From the IMG/VR virus record IMGVR_UViG_3300045902_000666, positions 37,744 to 101,743 of that record: a DNA stretch of 64,000 bases; one strand, written 5' to 3'. This DNA comes from a virus. A model generated the notes under the pieces. The model was not told the origin of the DNA. It saw only the letters and a program-made list of their open reading frames with translations, and did not search any database. Within the stretch, counting starts at the first letter, position 1; each line of letters opens with the position of its first letter. Below, piece by piece: positions 12,138-17,314 of the stretch. Both the position numbers and the translations under genes were made by a program.

Positions 12138-12533
12138 TTAATCTCCAGAACCGTATTGGTCAATCCACTTTTGCTTGCCAGTATTATAGTTATTTTTCCA
12201 GTCTATAAATTCTGGATTTATAACTTTCACTTTATCAAACCAAGCACCTCCAGGATTTAAAGAAAATACTGGGGTTGTACCAAATTTTTTTTCAAATTGA
12301 TTTACATAGTTTATAACATCATCTTGTCCAAAAACAGTTGACATAGCATCACCTTCATCTACAGAAGGAATCATTACTTCACCCCATCCTTTAACACCCC
12401 TATTCTTCCAATCAACATTCGCTCTTACATCTGGGAGTTTATTAAATGGGTAGTGATTAAGGATTTCTAAACCCTCAATTCCGCCAGCATTTTGCTGCTC
12501 CAACATCTCTCTGATAATTTTTCTAATTTTCAT
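12138..12533 (-). CDS. Hypothetical protein, candidate virion-internal protein
   Basis: N-terminus MKIRKIIREMLE; TATTTAT upstream. Confidence 0.6.
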   Translation of the reverse strand: MKIRKIIREMLEQQNAGGIEGLEILNHYPFNKLPDVRANVDWKNRGVKGWGEVMIPSVDEGDAMSTVFGQDDVINYVNQFEKKFGTTPVFSLNPGGAWFDKVKVINPEFIDWKNNYNTGKQKWIDQYGSGD

Positions 12534-12599
12534 AGCAAAAACTTTACAATAAATAGGTCCAAAAACACAAAACCCTAGCTATTTAGCTAGGATTTTATA

Positions 12600-13307
12600 C
12601 TACCAGTACATCCATCTTGCAGAATGACGATGGTTATATCTGTATTCATAATCATCATAATCACCTACTTTAGAAAGGTTTCTTTTCAAAGCTTTCTTGT
12701 TGTAATTTCTGTCAGAACGAGTAAAATCCTTTCTATAATCTTTAGGAGGATTTCTTCTTCCATCATACCAGCCACCAACTGGCCAGAACTTTTTCTGACA
12801 CAAATAACCCTTTCTTTCAGACTCCTCTTTAGCCAACACAGAATCAAATTCTTGATAGTGTGTAATCCAGCGAGGTTTGATTTTTTCTACGAAGTAGTAG
12901 CTAGGAAATGTACATTCATATATTTTTCTGAATGGACTCCAACGTCTACTCCAAGGGCTAATTGCTGAAAAATACTTTTTAACAGCAGGATGCAATTTTT
13001 CATAAGTTTCCTCAGAAATATCTCCAAATCCCGGATAAAGATATTCGTATTTTCCTTTGCTTAATTTTGTTCTGAAGGATTTATCTTTACAAAAAACCCT
13101 GTGTCCAACAAGTTTTAAGCATTCATAAAATACCCAAGCATCATCACGATTTTTGATGTCTTCTCTAAGGTCATGAAATTTGTAATAGCCGTCTTTGTAC
13201 GGTTTTTCAAGTTCAACCCAATTTTTATTGCGTTGAATTTTCCAGATTTGATAAATTTCTTTTTCAAGTCTGAGTTTCTCTTTGTAGAGAGGATGTTTTG
13301 AATTCAT
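12600..13307 (-). CDS. Basic aromatic-rich hypothetical protein downstream of a uORF-hairpin
   Basis: 235-aa K/R/Y/W-rich ORF; start codon at the base of a hairpin. Confidence 0.65.
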   Translation of the reverse strand: MNSKHPLYKEKLRLEKEIYQIWKIQRNKNWVELEKPYKDGYYKFHDLREDIKNRDDAWVFYECLKLVGHRVFCKDKSFRTKLSKGKYEYLYPGFGDISEETYEKLHPAVKKYFSAISPWSRRWSPFRKIYECTFPSYYFVEKIKPRWITHYQEFDSVLAKEESERKGYLCQKKFWPVGGWYDGRRNPPKDYRKDFTRSDRNYNKKALKRNLSKVGDYDDYEYRYNHRHSARWMYW

Positions 13308-13438: not shown

Positions 13439-13447
13439 TTTTTTTTG

Positions 13448-13521
13448 TGATTCCGATAGGACTTGAACCTACAACCCTCTCCTTAGGACGGAGTAGCTCT
13501 ATCCAGTTGAGCTACGGAACC
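13448..13521 (-). tRNA. tRNA-Arg(CCT)
   Basis: Cloverleaf GGTTCCG..., anticodon loop GT-CCT-AA, T-loop GGTTCAAGTCC. Confidence 0.9.
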
Positions 13522-13522
13522 A

Positions 13523-13807
13523 TTAATTTTGAGAATCCTGAATATCTTTCCAGATTTGTTTATCTATAACATGTTTTGGTGTTCTCTCATATTTCAGATA
13601 TGAACACATTGGACAAGAACAAGGAGTGGAAGTCCATTTTAAAAATGTCCACATTTCCCCTTTTCTAATCTTGTCTCTAATCTCAGCGGAAGTCATTCTC
13701 TCCCATCCAAAATATTGATGCTGATTAGCAGGAACCCAAATTTTAAGACGCTTCTCAAATTTACATTTTTCTTTCCAGCGTCTTTCAGCTCTTTTTAAAT
13801 TTTTCAT
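13523..13807 (-). CDS. Small basic protein with PCSCPMC motif
   Basis: 94-aa K/R-rich ORF with Cys cluster. Confidence 0.65.
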   Translation of the reverse strand: MKNLKRAERRWKEKCKFEKRLKIWVPANQHQYFGWERMTSAEIRDKIRKGEMWTFLKWTSTPCSCPMCSYLKYERTPKHVIDKQIWKDIQDSQN

Positions 13808-13935: not shown

Positions 13936-15141
13936 TTAAACATTATCCACTTCAAAAAGACCAATTTTTTTCATACCAACATACAAATCAGACATTAACT
14001 TGAAAAACATTACTTTGTTTTCTTCATTGCCAGATATATGATGTGTTGTATACAAAGAATTAATCTCTTTACATAATTCAACCAAAGCTTGAAATAAAAC
14101 ACTTGGGTTTAGAGCTGCTTTAGCTTTAATATAAGCGTACTTAATCTCTGGCTTGATAAAATCATCAGCCGAATGGTTTAAATCAACTCCAGCACTTTTT
14201 AAACGAGCCATAGTATAACTTAAATATAATCCGGGAGAATTTTTATGATTCTTCATCAAACTCATATCAAAAGTCTTATCTGACTTTGGCGAGCCTCCCA
14301 AAATATATCCTGCAAAAATGTTATAGGCTAATTTTTCATCACCATTAAACTCTTCTTTTAATTCTTCCATAAAATCTGAAAGATAAACAACATTACGAAG
14401 ACGTGTAGACATTTTACCATTTGCAGATGGAATCATTTTATTTGACTTCAATTTAACAAGCCCCAATCCTACATGTGTTATATGAGGATAAACTTTATTT
14501 AAAAGTTTAAAATGATTCTCTTGTTCATATCCAGTCAAATAAAGAGTATCATCATTTAAAAGAGATGCCAATGCTAAATCCTGATAAAAATAAGAAGTAG
14601 AACCATCTTTTTTTATTACAACAATTTTTTCTTCTCCAGCCTCAACTATTTTTGTTCCTTCATATTCTCCTTCTCCATCTTTCAATTCACCTCCATATTT
14701 CATTTCGGAAGCAAAGAAAATTTTATCTACTTTATAGTCAAAATTTTTACAGTGTTCTTTGAATTTTTCCAAAGCTTCTTCTTTAGAAACATCACCAGTT
14801 AATGTATCTCCAAGCATAGAAACATATTCTTCAGCGACTCCAAGTTTCTGAAATGCTTTAGCTAAAATTAAATTTGAAAAGTGGCCAATATGTAAATGTT
14901 TATTAAGATTTGGGCTGAACCCATCCATGTATTTGAACTTTTTTTCCCCTATAAACATTTTACCAAAATCTGTTTTTTCAGTAGGGAAAAAATTGGTGTA
15001 TCCTTTTTCTTTTTGAATTATAAAATTGCAAGACTCTGCTAGGTTTAAAACTTCTTGTGTTGGTTCGCCAAATACACAAAACCCAAATCCTTTATTAAGA
15101 TTAGAAGGTATTACTTTAAATAAACTCGAATCTGTTGACAT
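13936..15141 (-). CDS. argS: Arginyl-tRNA synthetase, reduced (~401 aa)
   Basis: FSPNLNKHLHIGH (HIGH), KKDG.TSY..DLA, KMSTR, PGLYLSYTMARLKS; probable ATG at 15141. Confidence 0.85.
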   Translation of the reverse strand: MSTDSSLFKVIPSNLNKGFGFCVFGEPTQEVLNLAESCNFIIQKEKGYTNFFPTEKTDFGKMFIGEKKFKYMDGFSPNLNKHLHIGHFSNLILAKAFQKLGVAEEYVSMLGDTLTGDVSKEEALEKFKEHCKNFDYKVDKIFFASEMKYGGELKDGEGEYEGTKIVEAGEEKIVVIKKDGSTSYFYQDLALASLLNDDTLYLTGYEQENHFKLLNKVYPHITHVGLGLVKLKSNKMIPSANGKMSTRLRNVVYLSDFMEELKEEFNGDEKLAYNIFAGYILGGSPKSDKTFDMSLMKNHKNSPGLYLSYTMARLKSAGVDLNHSADDFIKPEIKYAYIKAKAALNPSVLFQALVELCKEINSLYTTHHISGNEENKVMFFKLMSDLYVGMKKIGLFEVDNV

Positions 15142-15156
15142 TGTTTTTGTTTTTTG

Positions 15157-15247
15157 TACAGGAGGAGGGATTCGAACCCCCATTGGCATTGCTGCTTCAA
15201 CTCCAGTTACGGATAAAAGTTTAGAAAACTTCCTCGGTTACACCTGC
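15157..15247 (-). ncRNA. Atypical tRNA-like RNA without D-arm, TCT (Arg) anticodon-like loop, large variable region
   Basis: Acceptor GCAGGTG/CTCCTGT, T-arm GGGGG-TTCGAAT-CCCTC, stem GAAGT-TTTCTAA-ACTTT. Confidence 0.6.
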
Positions 15248-15969: not shown

Positions 15970-16054
15970 TGGAAGGTGTGAGATTCGAACTCACGGACCC
16001 CGAAGGGCCTCTAGTTTTCAAGACTAGTGCAATAGACCGCTCTACCAACCTTCC
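15970..16054 (-). tRNA. tRNA-Ser(TGA)
   Basis: CTAGT-CTTGAAA-ACTAG, long variable arm. Confidence 0.92.
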
Positions 16055-16057
16055 AAT

Positions 16058-16486
16058 TTATTTTTTCAATCTTTCAATTTCTTCTTTTATATCTTCTGTT
16101 TTAGTTCTCTTTCTTAGATGATAATATTTGTTCTTATCTATTTTTTCAAAGGGAATAAACCCATCAAAATGTTTATCAATCTGGTCTGCAAAATGTTCAA
16201 TCCTTTCAAGGAATGGCTCAAATTGATAGTTAATCGTTAAGAACACTCCAAGTTTTTCATCCCACTGTGCAAGGCCATGATTGCGAAATCTTACACCCAA
16301 ATAATATGCTCCATCAACAAGTTCTTCTTTTGGTATAGCTTCCTCAAGAAGTTTTTTTTCATGAAGCTTTTCTTCTTCATATTCTTCTTTCAAACGCTCT
16401 CTATTCTTTTGTGCATTTTCCTTTATTTCGTCTGCTTTTTTCTTACCAAACTTTTCTACTAACTTATTATAATGTTCTTCTTTCAT
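16058..16486 (-). CDS. Hypothetical protein, first gene after the attenuator
   Basis: 142-aa ORF. Confidence 0.6.
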   Translation of the reverse strand: MKEEHYNKLVEKFGKKKADEIKENAQKNRERLKEEYEEEKLHEKKLLEEAIPKEELVDGAYYLGVRFRNHGLAQWDEKLGVFLTINYQFEPFLERIEHFADQIDKHFDGFIPFEKIDKNKYYHLRKRTKTEDIKEEIERLKK

Positions 16487-16512
16487 TTTTTTCTTTTTAA
16501 ATTATTACAAAT

Positions 16513-16545
16513 AAAAAACCCCAGCTCTTTTGCAGAACCAGGGTT
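16513..16545 (-). terminator. Intrinsic terminator of the attenuator
   Basis: AACCCTGGTTCT-GCAAA-AGAGCTGGGGTT followed by a T-run. Confidence 0.8.
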
Positions 16546-16578
16546 ATACTGTTTTAACTTAAATATCTTTTAGAAAAG

Positions 16579-16668
16579 TTACGACAATATAGATGCTGGT
16601 CCGCTAGTTCTTTTTGAACTCGAACTTGAACTTCTCCAAGACCATCTATATGTTGTTGTTACTTTCAT
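16579..16668 (-). CDS. Attenuator leader peptide MKVTTTYRWSWRSSSSSSKRTSGPASILS
   Basis: 11 consecutive Arg/Trp/Ser codons; overlapping alternative hairpins; terminator 3' of it. Confidence 0.75.
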   Translation of the reverse strand: MKVTTTYRWSWRSSSSSSKRTSGPASILS

Positions 16669-16706
16669 GTTTTTATAAATATCAAAAATTTTCTTTTTTC
16701 TTGAGA

Positions 16707-16734
16707 TTGTACGCAAAGATAATAAAAAAGTTCT
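16707..16734 (-). promoter_or_regulatory. Promoter of leader/tRNA unit (AGAAC-N16-CGTACAA overlapping Bacteroidota -7 TATCTTTG)
   Basis: Motif variant about 40 nt upstream of the leader ATG. Confidence 0.6.
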
Positions 16735-16753
16735 ACAAAAGTCAAGTTTTTTT

Positions 16754-17020
16754 TTATTTTTTTTGCAACTTGTTGATTCCGAACCATTCATCCCTTGTTA
16801 TTTTTATTACAAAAGAAGTGTTAATCTGGAAAAAATTCTTTATCTGGGAACAAATTTCATATTTTTCTAAATTAGAATAATATTCTAAAGCCTCTTCTAT
16901 TATGAACGTAGGTATTAGTTCTTCATCTATTTTTTTCATTGTGTTATTGGCCAAAGAAGCTATACCATGATACATCATTATATCAATCTTACACGCTTTA
17001 TGTTCTCCTTTAAGCTTCAT
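16754..17020 (-). CDS. Hypothetical protein
   Basis: 88-aa ORF. Confidence 0.5.
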   Translation of the reverse strand: MKLKGEHKACKIDIMMYHGIASLANNTMKKIDEELIPTFIIEEALEYYSNLEKYEICSQIKNFFQINTSFVIKITRDEWFGINKLQKK

Positions 17021-17026
17021 ACATAA

Positions 17027-17314
17027 CTAACAATAAACAGTGGGCGCACCTGGTCTTCCAGATTTTCCTTGTCTAATAGAACCGTTTAATATATCATTTA
17101 ACGAAGTGTTTTCTTCGGTAAATGTATTGCAAATAGGTTTACCTGCTGTGCTATCAGTTAGCAATTCATAAGAGACACTTCTATTTGGAGTTACTTTATT
17201 AAAAACTAACTGTAAGTGGTCTTTAATAATTTCCACTTGTTTAGGAGTTAGTTTTTTATCTCCAGATAATTCAAAAAACCCTTGTAACCAATAACAAAAA
17301 TCTGTTGCTTCCAT
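17027..17314 (-). CDS. Hypothetical phage protein
   Basis: 95-aa ORF (FCYWLQGFFEL...QVEIIKDHL). Confidence 0.55.
   Translation of the reverse strand: MEATDFCYWLQGFFELSGDKKLTPKQVEIIKDHLQLVFNKVTPNRSVSYELLTDSTAGKPICNTFTEENTSLNDILNGSIRQGKSGRPGAPTVYC

Follow-up and report, generated by a model that had tools for sequence, protein, structure and literature searches.

A putative leader-peptide attenuator whose codons match the downstream Ser/Trp/Arg tRNA operon of a phage

The described systems closest to the element reported here are the enterobacterial leaders of thr (Thr and Ile), ilvGMEDA (Ile, Leu and Val), trpL, hisL and leuL, which likewise combine a translated leader carrying regulatory codons with mutually exclusive 1:2, 2:3 and 3:4 helices. 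The multivalent leaders of this group resemble it further in that one leader addresses several amino acids, stability favours the terminator over the antiterminator, and the decision is kinetic. In E. coli trpL, the decision is kinetic as well, with 3:4 more stable than 2:3. While the enterobacterial leaders gate biosynthetic enzymes, the phage element would gate tRNAs together with an aminoacyl-tRNA synthetase in a probable Bacteroidota host, and the set it would sense is the operon's own decoding set, which amounts to direct decoding feedback; no sequence similarity exists between them. Another translation-apparatus gene behind a leader rich in cognate codons is found in pheM-pheST of E. coli. 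That system is a host gene sensing one amino acid, in an operon without tRNA genes. T-box riboswitches, too, sense tRNA charging and control termination before translation-related genes, but they bind uncharged tRNA via a specifier loop without a ribosome, whereas the phage element has an ORF whose translation is inferred. Assignment of the element to the T-box riboswitches (RF00230) was rejected for want of an Rfam match. Finally, a cryptic long tRNA array of Anabaena is induced under translational stress (PMC8421152), and is likewise an accessory array expressed when translation is impaired. In contrast to the present case, this array is cellular rather than phage-borne, and neither a leader peptide nor an attenuator is described in the paper, whose text lacks the words leader, attenuat-, terminator and uORF.

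The tRNA genes of phages are as a rule regarded as cargo that is expressed constitutively, and the reason for their presence is under debate; codon usage, host shut-off and evasion of anticodon nucleases have all been put forward. To our knowledge, there is no earlier case of ribosome-mediated attenuation controlling tRNA genes. In line with this, the full-text literature searched yielded no report of tRNA genes controlled by leader-peptide attenuation; an initial sequence-only reading of the locus, made without database searches, had likewise known of no description of a multi-amino-acid attenuator on a phage tRNA operon. We consider it likely, on computational support only, that the element represents known attenuation logic in a new setting, in which tRNA genes are gated and the operon's own decoding set is sensed.

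The window, by which we mean the whole stretch of 64,000 nucleotides analysed, is the last 64 kb of a linear virus record of 101,743 bp (CheckV completeness 37%). Record positions minus 37,743 give window positions, and attenuator and operon coordinates are given on the minus strand. This strand carries nearly all genes, 38 tRNAs among them, and the G+C content of the DNA is ~30%. From 16760 to 16511, this strand carries a promoter of Bacteroidota type, then an ORF of 29 codons and a long hairpin; an alternative antiterminator helix and a strong intrinsic terminator complete the region. 3′ of the terminator lie ORF142 and seven tRNA genes (Ser x3, Trp x2, Arg x2), together with one further tRNA-like element, Arg(UCU), and a gene resembling ArgRS. 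The stretch occurs in sequencing runs from hot springs and microbial mats, and no RNA run contains it. The individual features are as follows:

16670-16760, minus strand: promoter and 5′ UTR block, A/T-rich in its promoter part, with TTGAC at 16745-16741, TAtcTTTG at 16721-16714 and a predicted start at ~16708
16579-16668, minus strand: leader ORF of 29 codons plus stop, ATG at 16668, read from the sequence, frame kept among relatives
16640-16666, minus strand: segment 1, which supplies the 5′ side of the protector hairpin, with the core ATATAGATG at 16651-16643, from minimum free energy (MFE) folds
16615-16647, minus strand: sensor run RWSWRSSSSSS, codons 8-18 of the leader, all 11 readable by array anticodons
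16587-16604, minus strand: segment 2, with GCGGACCAG (16604-16596) as the partner of segment 3 and CATCTATAT (16595-16587) as that of segment 1
16532-16545, minus strand: segment 3, the terminator 5′ strand and also the partner of segment 2, from folds and alignment
16513-16528, minus strand: segment 4, the terminator 3′ strand (16528-16517), with the T-run (16518-16513), from stem and energy
16058-16486, minus strand: ORF142, conserved, the first gene past the attenuator, with homologues at 47-80% identity
15157-16054, minus strand: tRNA array of Ser(TGA), Trp(CCA) of 91 nt, Trp(CCA), Ser(GCT), Ser(GGA), Arg(TCT) and the Arg(UCU) tRNA-like element, from ARAGORN and Rfam
13936-15189, minus strand: ArgRS-like gene, 417 aa, with matches to Pfam PF00750 and DALR
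13523-13807, minus strand: 94-aa ORF preceding tRNA-Arg(CCT)
13447-13521, minus strand: tRNA-Arg(CCT), the final tRNA of the operon, from ARAGORN and Rfam

All tRNA calls between 16054 and 13447 were made with ARAGORN and Rfam. The 417-aa ORF matched the ArgRS catalytic domain in Pfam (PF00750, E=8e-6, above the cut-off), with the DALR domain remaining below the cut-off, and a relative with 66% identity sits among Arg tRNAs. ORF142 had no family match in Pfam; its AlphaFold model (pLDDT 84) consists of a long helix and a small beta domain, for which Foldseek returned no fold match in the PDB (nothing below E=0.7). Residues R66, R68, W75, H98 and D101 and a DGF-P motif are invariant among its homologues, and the gene adjoins tRNA arrays in related huge phages (14 IMG/VR and 24 metagenome loci by profile search). 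Tested for nearby tRNAs, the ORF142 homologue in the 735-kb phage LR756501.1 had none. Rfam searches brought only tRNAs to gathering score, and 16400-16900 yielded only sub-threshold noise (E<=10). Membership in the known Rfam leader families (His_leader, Trp_leader, Thr_leader, Leu_leader and others) was discarded in the absence of a covariance-model match.

Several tRNAs of the phage have unusual shapes. The Trp(CCA) tRNA of 91 nt (window 15963-15873) has a long type-II-like variable arm, and the Arg(UCU) tRNA-like element (15247-15157) combines a shortened D-arm with a 31-nt insertion. Many tRNA species occur as a normal copy plus a copy of ~85-91 nt (record C1 3933-4023, 6049-6139 and others), and long copies exist too for Lys(TTT), Asn(GTT), Thr, Met and Ala tRNAs.

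Ribosome-mediated attenuators require a cluster of regulatory codons in the leader, and the phage leader has one, a run of 11 consecutive Arg/Trp/Ser codons (translation of the leader is itself inferred). On the minus strand, codons 8-18 read AGA TGG TCT TGG AGA AGT TCA AGT TCG AGT TCA, and under strict wobble rules the anticodons of the array read 11/11 of them. The regulatory codons are the very codons decoded by the operon's own tRNAs, which fulfils in a new form the requirement that they correspond to the operon product. When ~99,900 stop-free 12-codon windows in six frames of the 101.7-kb record were scored for Ser/Trp/Arg content, the score of the leader was matched at only two sites. 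Most leaders open A-rich, with MKT(T) or a near variant at the start. The sequence-only reading had proposed a uORF at 16579-16668 with these codons 8-18, and Ser/Trp/Arg tRNAs plus ArgRS downstream covering every sensor codon; both claims held, the former as read directly, the latter by ARAGORN, Rfam, Pfam and the wobble check. Its account of the array was partly incomplete, the operon additionally containing ORF142, the 94-aa ORF and the atypical Arg(UCU) tRNA-like element, and its two Trp tRNAs were confirmed, except that one has the long variable arm.

Two comparisons bear on selection on the leader. In aligned relatives, indels across the sensor and segment 2 stretch of the leader ORF all have lengths divisible by three; gaps of 1, 2 and 4 occur near or after the leader stop codon. 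At closer range, an estuary-metagenome contig of ~96% identity spanning 16000-16800 has 2 differences in the 208 nt of leader and terminator (16513-16720) versus 29 differences in the 429 nt of ORF142 (Fisher p=0.0007), showing that leader and terminator are more conserved than the neighbouring ORF142 in this near-identical relative. Synonymous-codon diversity, in turn, was not above expectation for the Ser/Trp/Arg leader (p=0.6), and only weakly significant for the leader of module B, described below (p=0.018).

Upstream of the leader, the elements TTGAC and TAtcTTTG with a spacer of ~20 form what we take to be a Bacteroidota -33/-7 type promoter. The promoter/5′ UTR block is present in 4 copies in the 101.7-kb record (75-83% identity), and the pattern TTGAC-N17-20-TAnnTTTG has 3 matches in the window versus 0.37 expected; an exact-pattern scan of IMG/VR for the promoter/UTR motif returned matches confined to this record. 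A pattern scan revealed no promoter of the same type between terminator and tRNAs or inside the array, a result consistent with dependence of the array on readthrough. A weak sigma-70-like site lies within ORF142 (16149-16121), and some attenuator-independent transcription can therefore not be excluded.

The structural parts required of an attenuator, namely an intrinsic terminator, a mutually exclusive 2:3 antiterminator and a 1:2 hairpin, are all present, whereas conditional termination is inferred. The terminator (16545-16517) has a G+C-rich 12-pair stem with 5 G-C pairs followed by the T-run (-16.5 kcal/mol) and is kept in 8 homologues with 91.7% of positions paired; in the ~96% identical contig, a change at 16523 converts a terminator G.U pair into G-C. 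The protector, 16651-16643 with 16595-16587, is an exact 9-bp helix and forms the core of a 1:2 hairpin of -24.2 kcal/mol. For the antiterminator, folding pairs GCGGACCAG (16604-16596) with CUGG-U-UCUGC (16541-16532). This helix alone is modest in the present leader, with 7-9 pairs, and the whole segment 2-to-segment 3 structure reaches -22.9 kcal/mol, including inner helices able to coexist with the terminator.

Comparison with relatives supports these helices. Segment 2 reads GAACCAGG, GAATCAGGG or GAATTAGGG in relatives, with compensatory changes, and the antiterminator was seen in 12/13 leaders. Relative to shuffled sequences, the present leader gave p=0.035 for segment 2:segment 3 and p=0.003 for the segment 1:segment 2 duplex; over six distinct leaders, the Fisher combined values were p=1e-5 and p=4e-5, respectively. 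The layout is constant over the six leaders, with segment 1 at codons 3-17, segment 2 at codons 18-34 and the terminator beginning 30-40 nt past the stop codon. In the alignment of 8 homologues, 87.5% of antiterminator positions are paired versus 49-61% after a shift by one column, and 2 antiterminator pairs are compensatory, with the same two segment 3 columns compensated in the terminator too. Compensation in both partners is exactly what mutually exclusive helices predict, but the sample is small: the 8 homologues represent only ~5 distinct types, and 24/500 shuffles reached the observed count.

MFE folds of all three leaders of the record (the other two are described below) gave a long hairpin, in which the sensor codons pair with the 3′ part of the ORF, followed by the terminator. 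A stalled ribosome was modelled by forcing a 30-nt footprint unpaired and folding the transcript only to the terminator loop. With the footprint at codons 6-18, segment 2 was freed for segment 3, whereas from codon 20 on it was not, and the other two leaders behaved alike, forming the antiterminator only with the footprint on the sensor. Equilibrium folding of the full transcript favoured the terminator even with a ribosome modelled on the sensor; any switch must therefore be kinetic. These results bear out most of the initial structural claims: the terminator at 16513-16545 held (12-pair stem and T-run), as did the exact 9-bp protector of 16643-16651 with 16587-16595, and the folding proposed as a check shows the antiterminator under a footprint while equilibrium folds keep the terminator. 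Two antiterminator options had been put forward and both exist in the sequence, but the GGACCAG-type pairing alone is kept in relatives. The alternative, AGAACTAG, was dropped: relatives do not conserve it, and one close relative has it disrupted at 16610. The suggested trpL/hisL logic is supported, by sequence comparison only, with a translated-type sensor run in segment 1, segment 2 right after it, and a 3:4 terminator.

The arrangement recurs within the same record. Two further promoter, leader and terminator modules lie upstream of the window, at record ~7,548-7,445 (L044; module A) and ~31,039-30,947 (L045; module B), so that three of the promoter copies each stand ahead of a short ORF, which is followed by a strong terminator and then by a tRNA array; every array of the record has its own leader. 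The first of these leaders is rich in Thr/Lys/His/Ile/Asn, with the run TKKHTINKNTTIFNTNINKH, and precedes Asn x2, His x2, Thr x3, Lys x4, Ile x2 and Met tRNAs. The second, rich in Tyr/Pro/Ala/Met/Gly/Asp with the run YPVYTVAAPAMGDAGMGYAPDY, precedes Ala, Pro x2, Asp x2, Tyr x2, Pro, Ala, Ser, Gly x3 and Met tRNAs. In the best 16-codon window of the three modules, 15/16, 16/16 and 13/16 residues belong to the set of the module's own array, and the own-array score of each leader is reached at no more than 1-2 sites among the ~99,900 stop-free 12-codon windows of the whole record. The phage likely carries at least three attenuator modules, each tuned to its own array, although their regulation is inferred.

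To follow the leader beyond this record, a profile built from ORF142 homologues was used to collect 14 IMG/VR and 24 metagenome loci, which were scanned automatically for short ORFs followed by a terminator and tRNAs. Homologous Arg/Trp/Ser leaders precede Ser/Trp/Arg arrays at L006 and L020-L025, while at L010-L016 and L029-L036 Pro/Gln/Tyr/Thr/Gly/Lys leaders (e.g. TYQPKQYTKGGQPQSTG) precede exactly those six tRNA types. A Thr/Cys/Arg/Leu/Ser-type leader at L019 precedes Thr, Cys, Arg, Leu x2, Met, Ser and Arg tRNAs. In LR756502.1, a deposited but unannotated sequence of 642 kb, one leader rich in Lys/His/Phe precedes Phe, His, Phe and Lys x3 tRNAs, and a Ser/Arg leader precedes Arg(ACG), Ser(TGA) and Arg(TCG). 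When 5 non-homologous leaders were permuted against their 5 arrays, the true pairing was the best of 120 permutations (58 vs mean 33). The match extends to the Arg codon box: leaders of Arg(TCT)/Arg(CCT) arrays use AGR codons only, the leader of the Arg(ACG)/Arg(TCG) array uses CGN codons only, and the L019 leader, whose array has tRNAs of both kinds, contains codons of both boxes. The codon-box match is less than perfect for Ser in some relatives, a number of which are represented by truncated contigs. In blastn searches against GenBank phages, matches were limited to tRNA genes. Together, these comparisons demonstrate that leader content co-varies with the tRNA array over phages, including the Arg codon box. 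This is the co-variation the sequence-only reading had proposed to look for, and the absence of a conserved leader in phages with the same array, which it had named as a refutation, was not borne out, given the homologous leaders at L006 and L020-L025.

The best explanation, which we regard as likely, is that the element is a ribosome-mediated leader-peptide attenuator gating the operon of Ser/Trp/Arg tRNAs and ArgRS in this uncultured phage; it rests on sequence comparison, without expression, 3′-end or ribosome data. Its anatomy, the codon-to-array match, the co-variation over phages and the support for the helices are shown, whereas translation of the leader, conditional termination and the natural trigger are all inferred. 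In this view, host RNA polymerase would start near 16708 at the Bacteroidota-type promoter and a ribosome would translate the 29-codon leader. With fast decoding of the Arg(AGA), Trp and Ser codons 8-18, the ribosome would run over segment 2, and 3:4 would terminate transcription at ~16513. If the leader were left untranslated, segment 1 would pair with segment 2, the 3:4 terminator would form and transcription would again stop at ~16513. When a charged tRNA is scarce, any of the sensor codons would become slow and the stalled ribosome would cover segment 1; the freed segment 2 (GCGGACCAG) would engage segment 3 while segment 4 is still to be transcribed, the terminator would fail, and polymerase would continue through ORF142 and on to the Ser/Trp/Arg tRNAs and ArgRS. 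Because the products of the operon decode the sensor codons themselves, such a circuit would exert negative, homeostatic feedback on tRNA supply. A matched leader and a switchable stop ahead of the tRNAs suggest therefore that the tRNA set is probably made only when these codons are read slowly.

Among the alternatives, a classical amino-acid starvation sensor appears the least remote, although we still consider it unlikely. Here, the leader would respond to host shortage of Ser, Trp or Arg, and the tRNAs would merely be co-regulated with ArgRS. The operon does contain an ArgRS gene, and thr, ilvGMEDA and pheM-pheST, with the same architecture, are known to respond to charged-tRNA levels set by amino-acid supply. 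Against this reading, extra tRNA gives no relief from amino-acid starvation, the regulated genes are overwhelmingly tRNAs with a leader for every array of the record, and the Arg codon boxes of the leaders track the array anticodons rather than just the amino acid.

We regard it as very unlikely that the short ORF stands on its own, as a gene for a small protein or as a small RNA, with the tRNAs transcribed from elsewhere and the Ser/Trp/Arg richness incidental. Promoter, short ORF and terminator would indeed make a complete small transcription unit, an AGTTCR x3 hexamer repeat yields the Ser run, and the sigma-70-like site within ORF142 could be cited in its favour. However, the three modules of the record and at least five non-homologous leaders elsewhere match their own arrays, every leader has, at the same position, a segment complementary to the terminator 5′ strand, and the array lacks a promoter of the phage's own type. 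Equally improbable in our judgement is a constitutive or leaky terminator with a leader acting post-transcriptionally, stalling altering the processing or stability of the precursor. In its favour, equilibrium folds always prefer the terminator and tRNA precursors are known to undergo heavy processing, but the conserved and compensated segment 2:segment 3 complementarity would be left without a role, and mutually exclusive helices are a hallmark of termination control.

Under the attenuator reading, possible natural triggers include codon-usage demand, host shut-off and tRNA-targeting defence. None of these is more than inference, and the trigger suggested at the outset, starvation or an anticodon-nuclease defence, has the same status. 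A bolder reading, which we offer only as a possibility, is that the modules constitute an anticodon-level homeostat of tRNA supply, in which each operon would be gated by the real-time decoding speed of its own codons and would serve as an inducible counter to tRNA depletion in infection. The depletion might come from host anticodon nucleases, host shut-off or codon-usage mismatch, and the same reading would have ArgRS co-induced here and an RNA ligase co-induced in the Lys/Thr/Ile/Asn/His operon. If the attenuator reading is true, it would show that tRNA supply is regulated on demand by huge phages; the leader would be a sequence-readable label of the array, because it lists what the array serves, and leaders could provide synthetic biology with natural compact sensors of isoacceptor availability. 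The recurrence of the modules, three in this record, many more in relatives, plus those of the unannotated 642-kb genome, makes the idea testable with simple reporters.

Other genes in and around the arrays were recorded alongside. An RNA ligase gene (PF09414, E=2e-9; L044:2063-2728, minus strand) lies inside the Lys/Thr/Ile/Asn/His tRNA operon (array A), and homing-type nucleases of the HNH, GIY-YIG and endonuclease VII types are scattered through arrays A and B. The fourth copy of the promoter block (21222-21145, minus strand) would drive a PTH2-like peptidyl-tRNA hydrolase ORF (21131-20739), which together with the RNA ligase of array A fits a theme of translation maintenance. If the first ATG of the PTH2-like ORF serves as start, its third codon is TAG. 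On the same strand and 3′ of it follow an 86-aa ORF, a tRNA-Cys(GCA) and a tRNA with a CUA anticodon (amber suppressor), the region as a whole covering 21222-20277, and reading TAG as sense would merge two other ORF pairs of the window (12138-13307 and 16754-17314).

A further promoter of the same type, TATATTTGCGTATAAT at 31495-31480 (minus strand), is followed by non-coding sequence (region ~31495-31200) with repeated GTGGCAAG...GTTACTTCG...ATCCC motifs. These motifs also occur in or beside tRNA arrays A and B (record C1 ~6925-6860 and 30700-30640), and the GTGGCAAG/GTTACTTCG repeats resemble a structured-RNA family, without an Rfam match at gathering score. Right after the module B terminator (L045 ~6731-6605; record C1 30731-30605, minus strand) sits a tRNA-like gene of ~125 nt, called by neither ARAGORN nor Rfam, with acceptor and T arms and a long internal insertion. 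Between tRNA clusters of the window, 18715-19911 (minus strand) encodes a TnpB/IS605 OrfB-type gene with an OrfB_IS605 and a Cas12f1-like TNB domain and one in-frame TAG, and 22048-22743 (minus strand) a GIY-YIG/NUMOD homing endonuclease.
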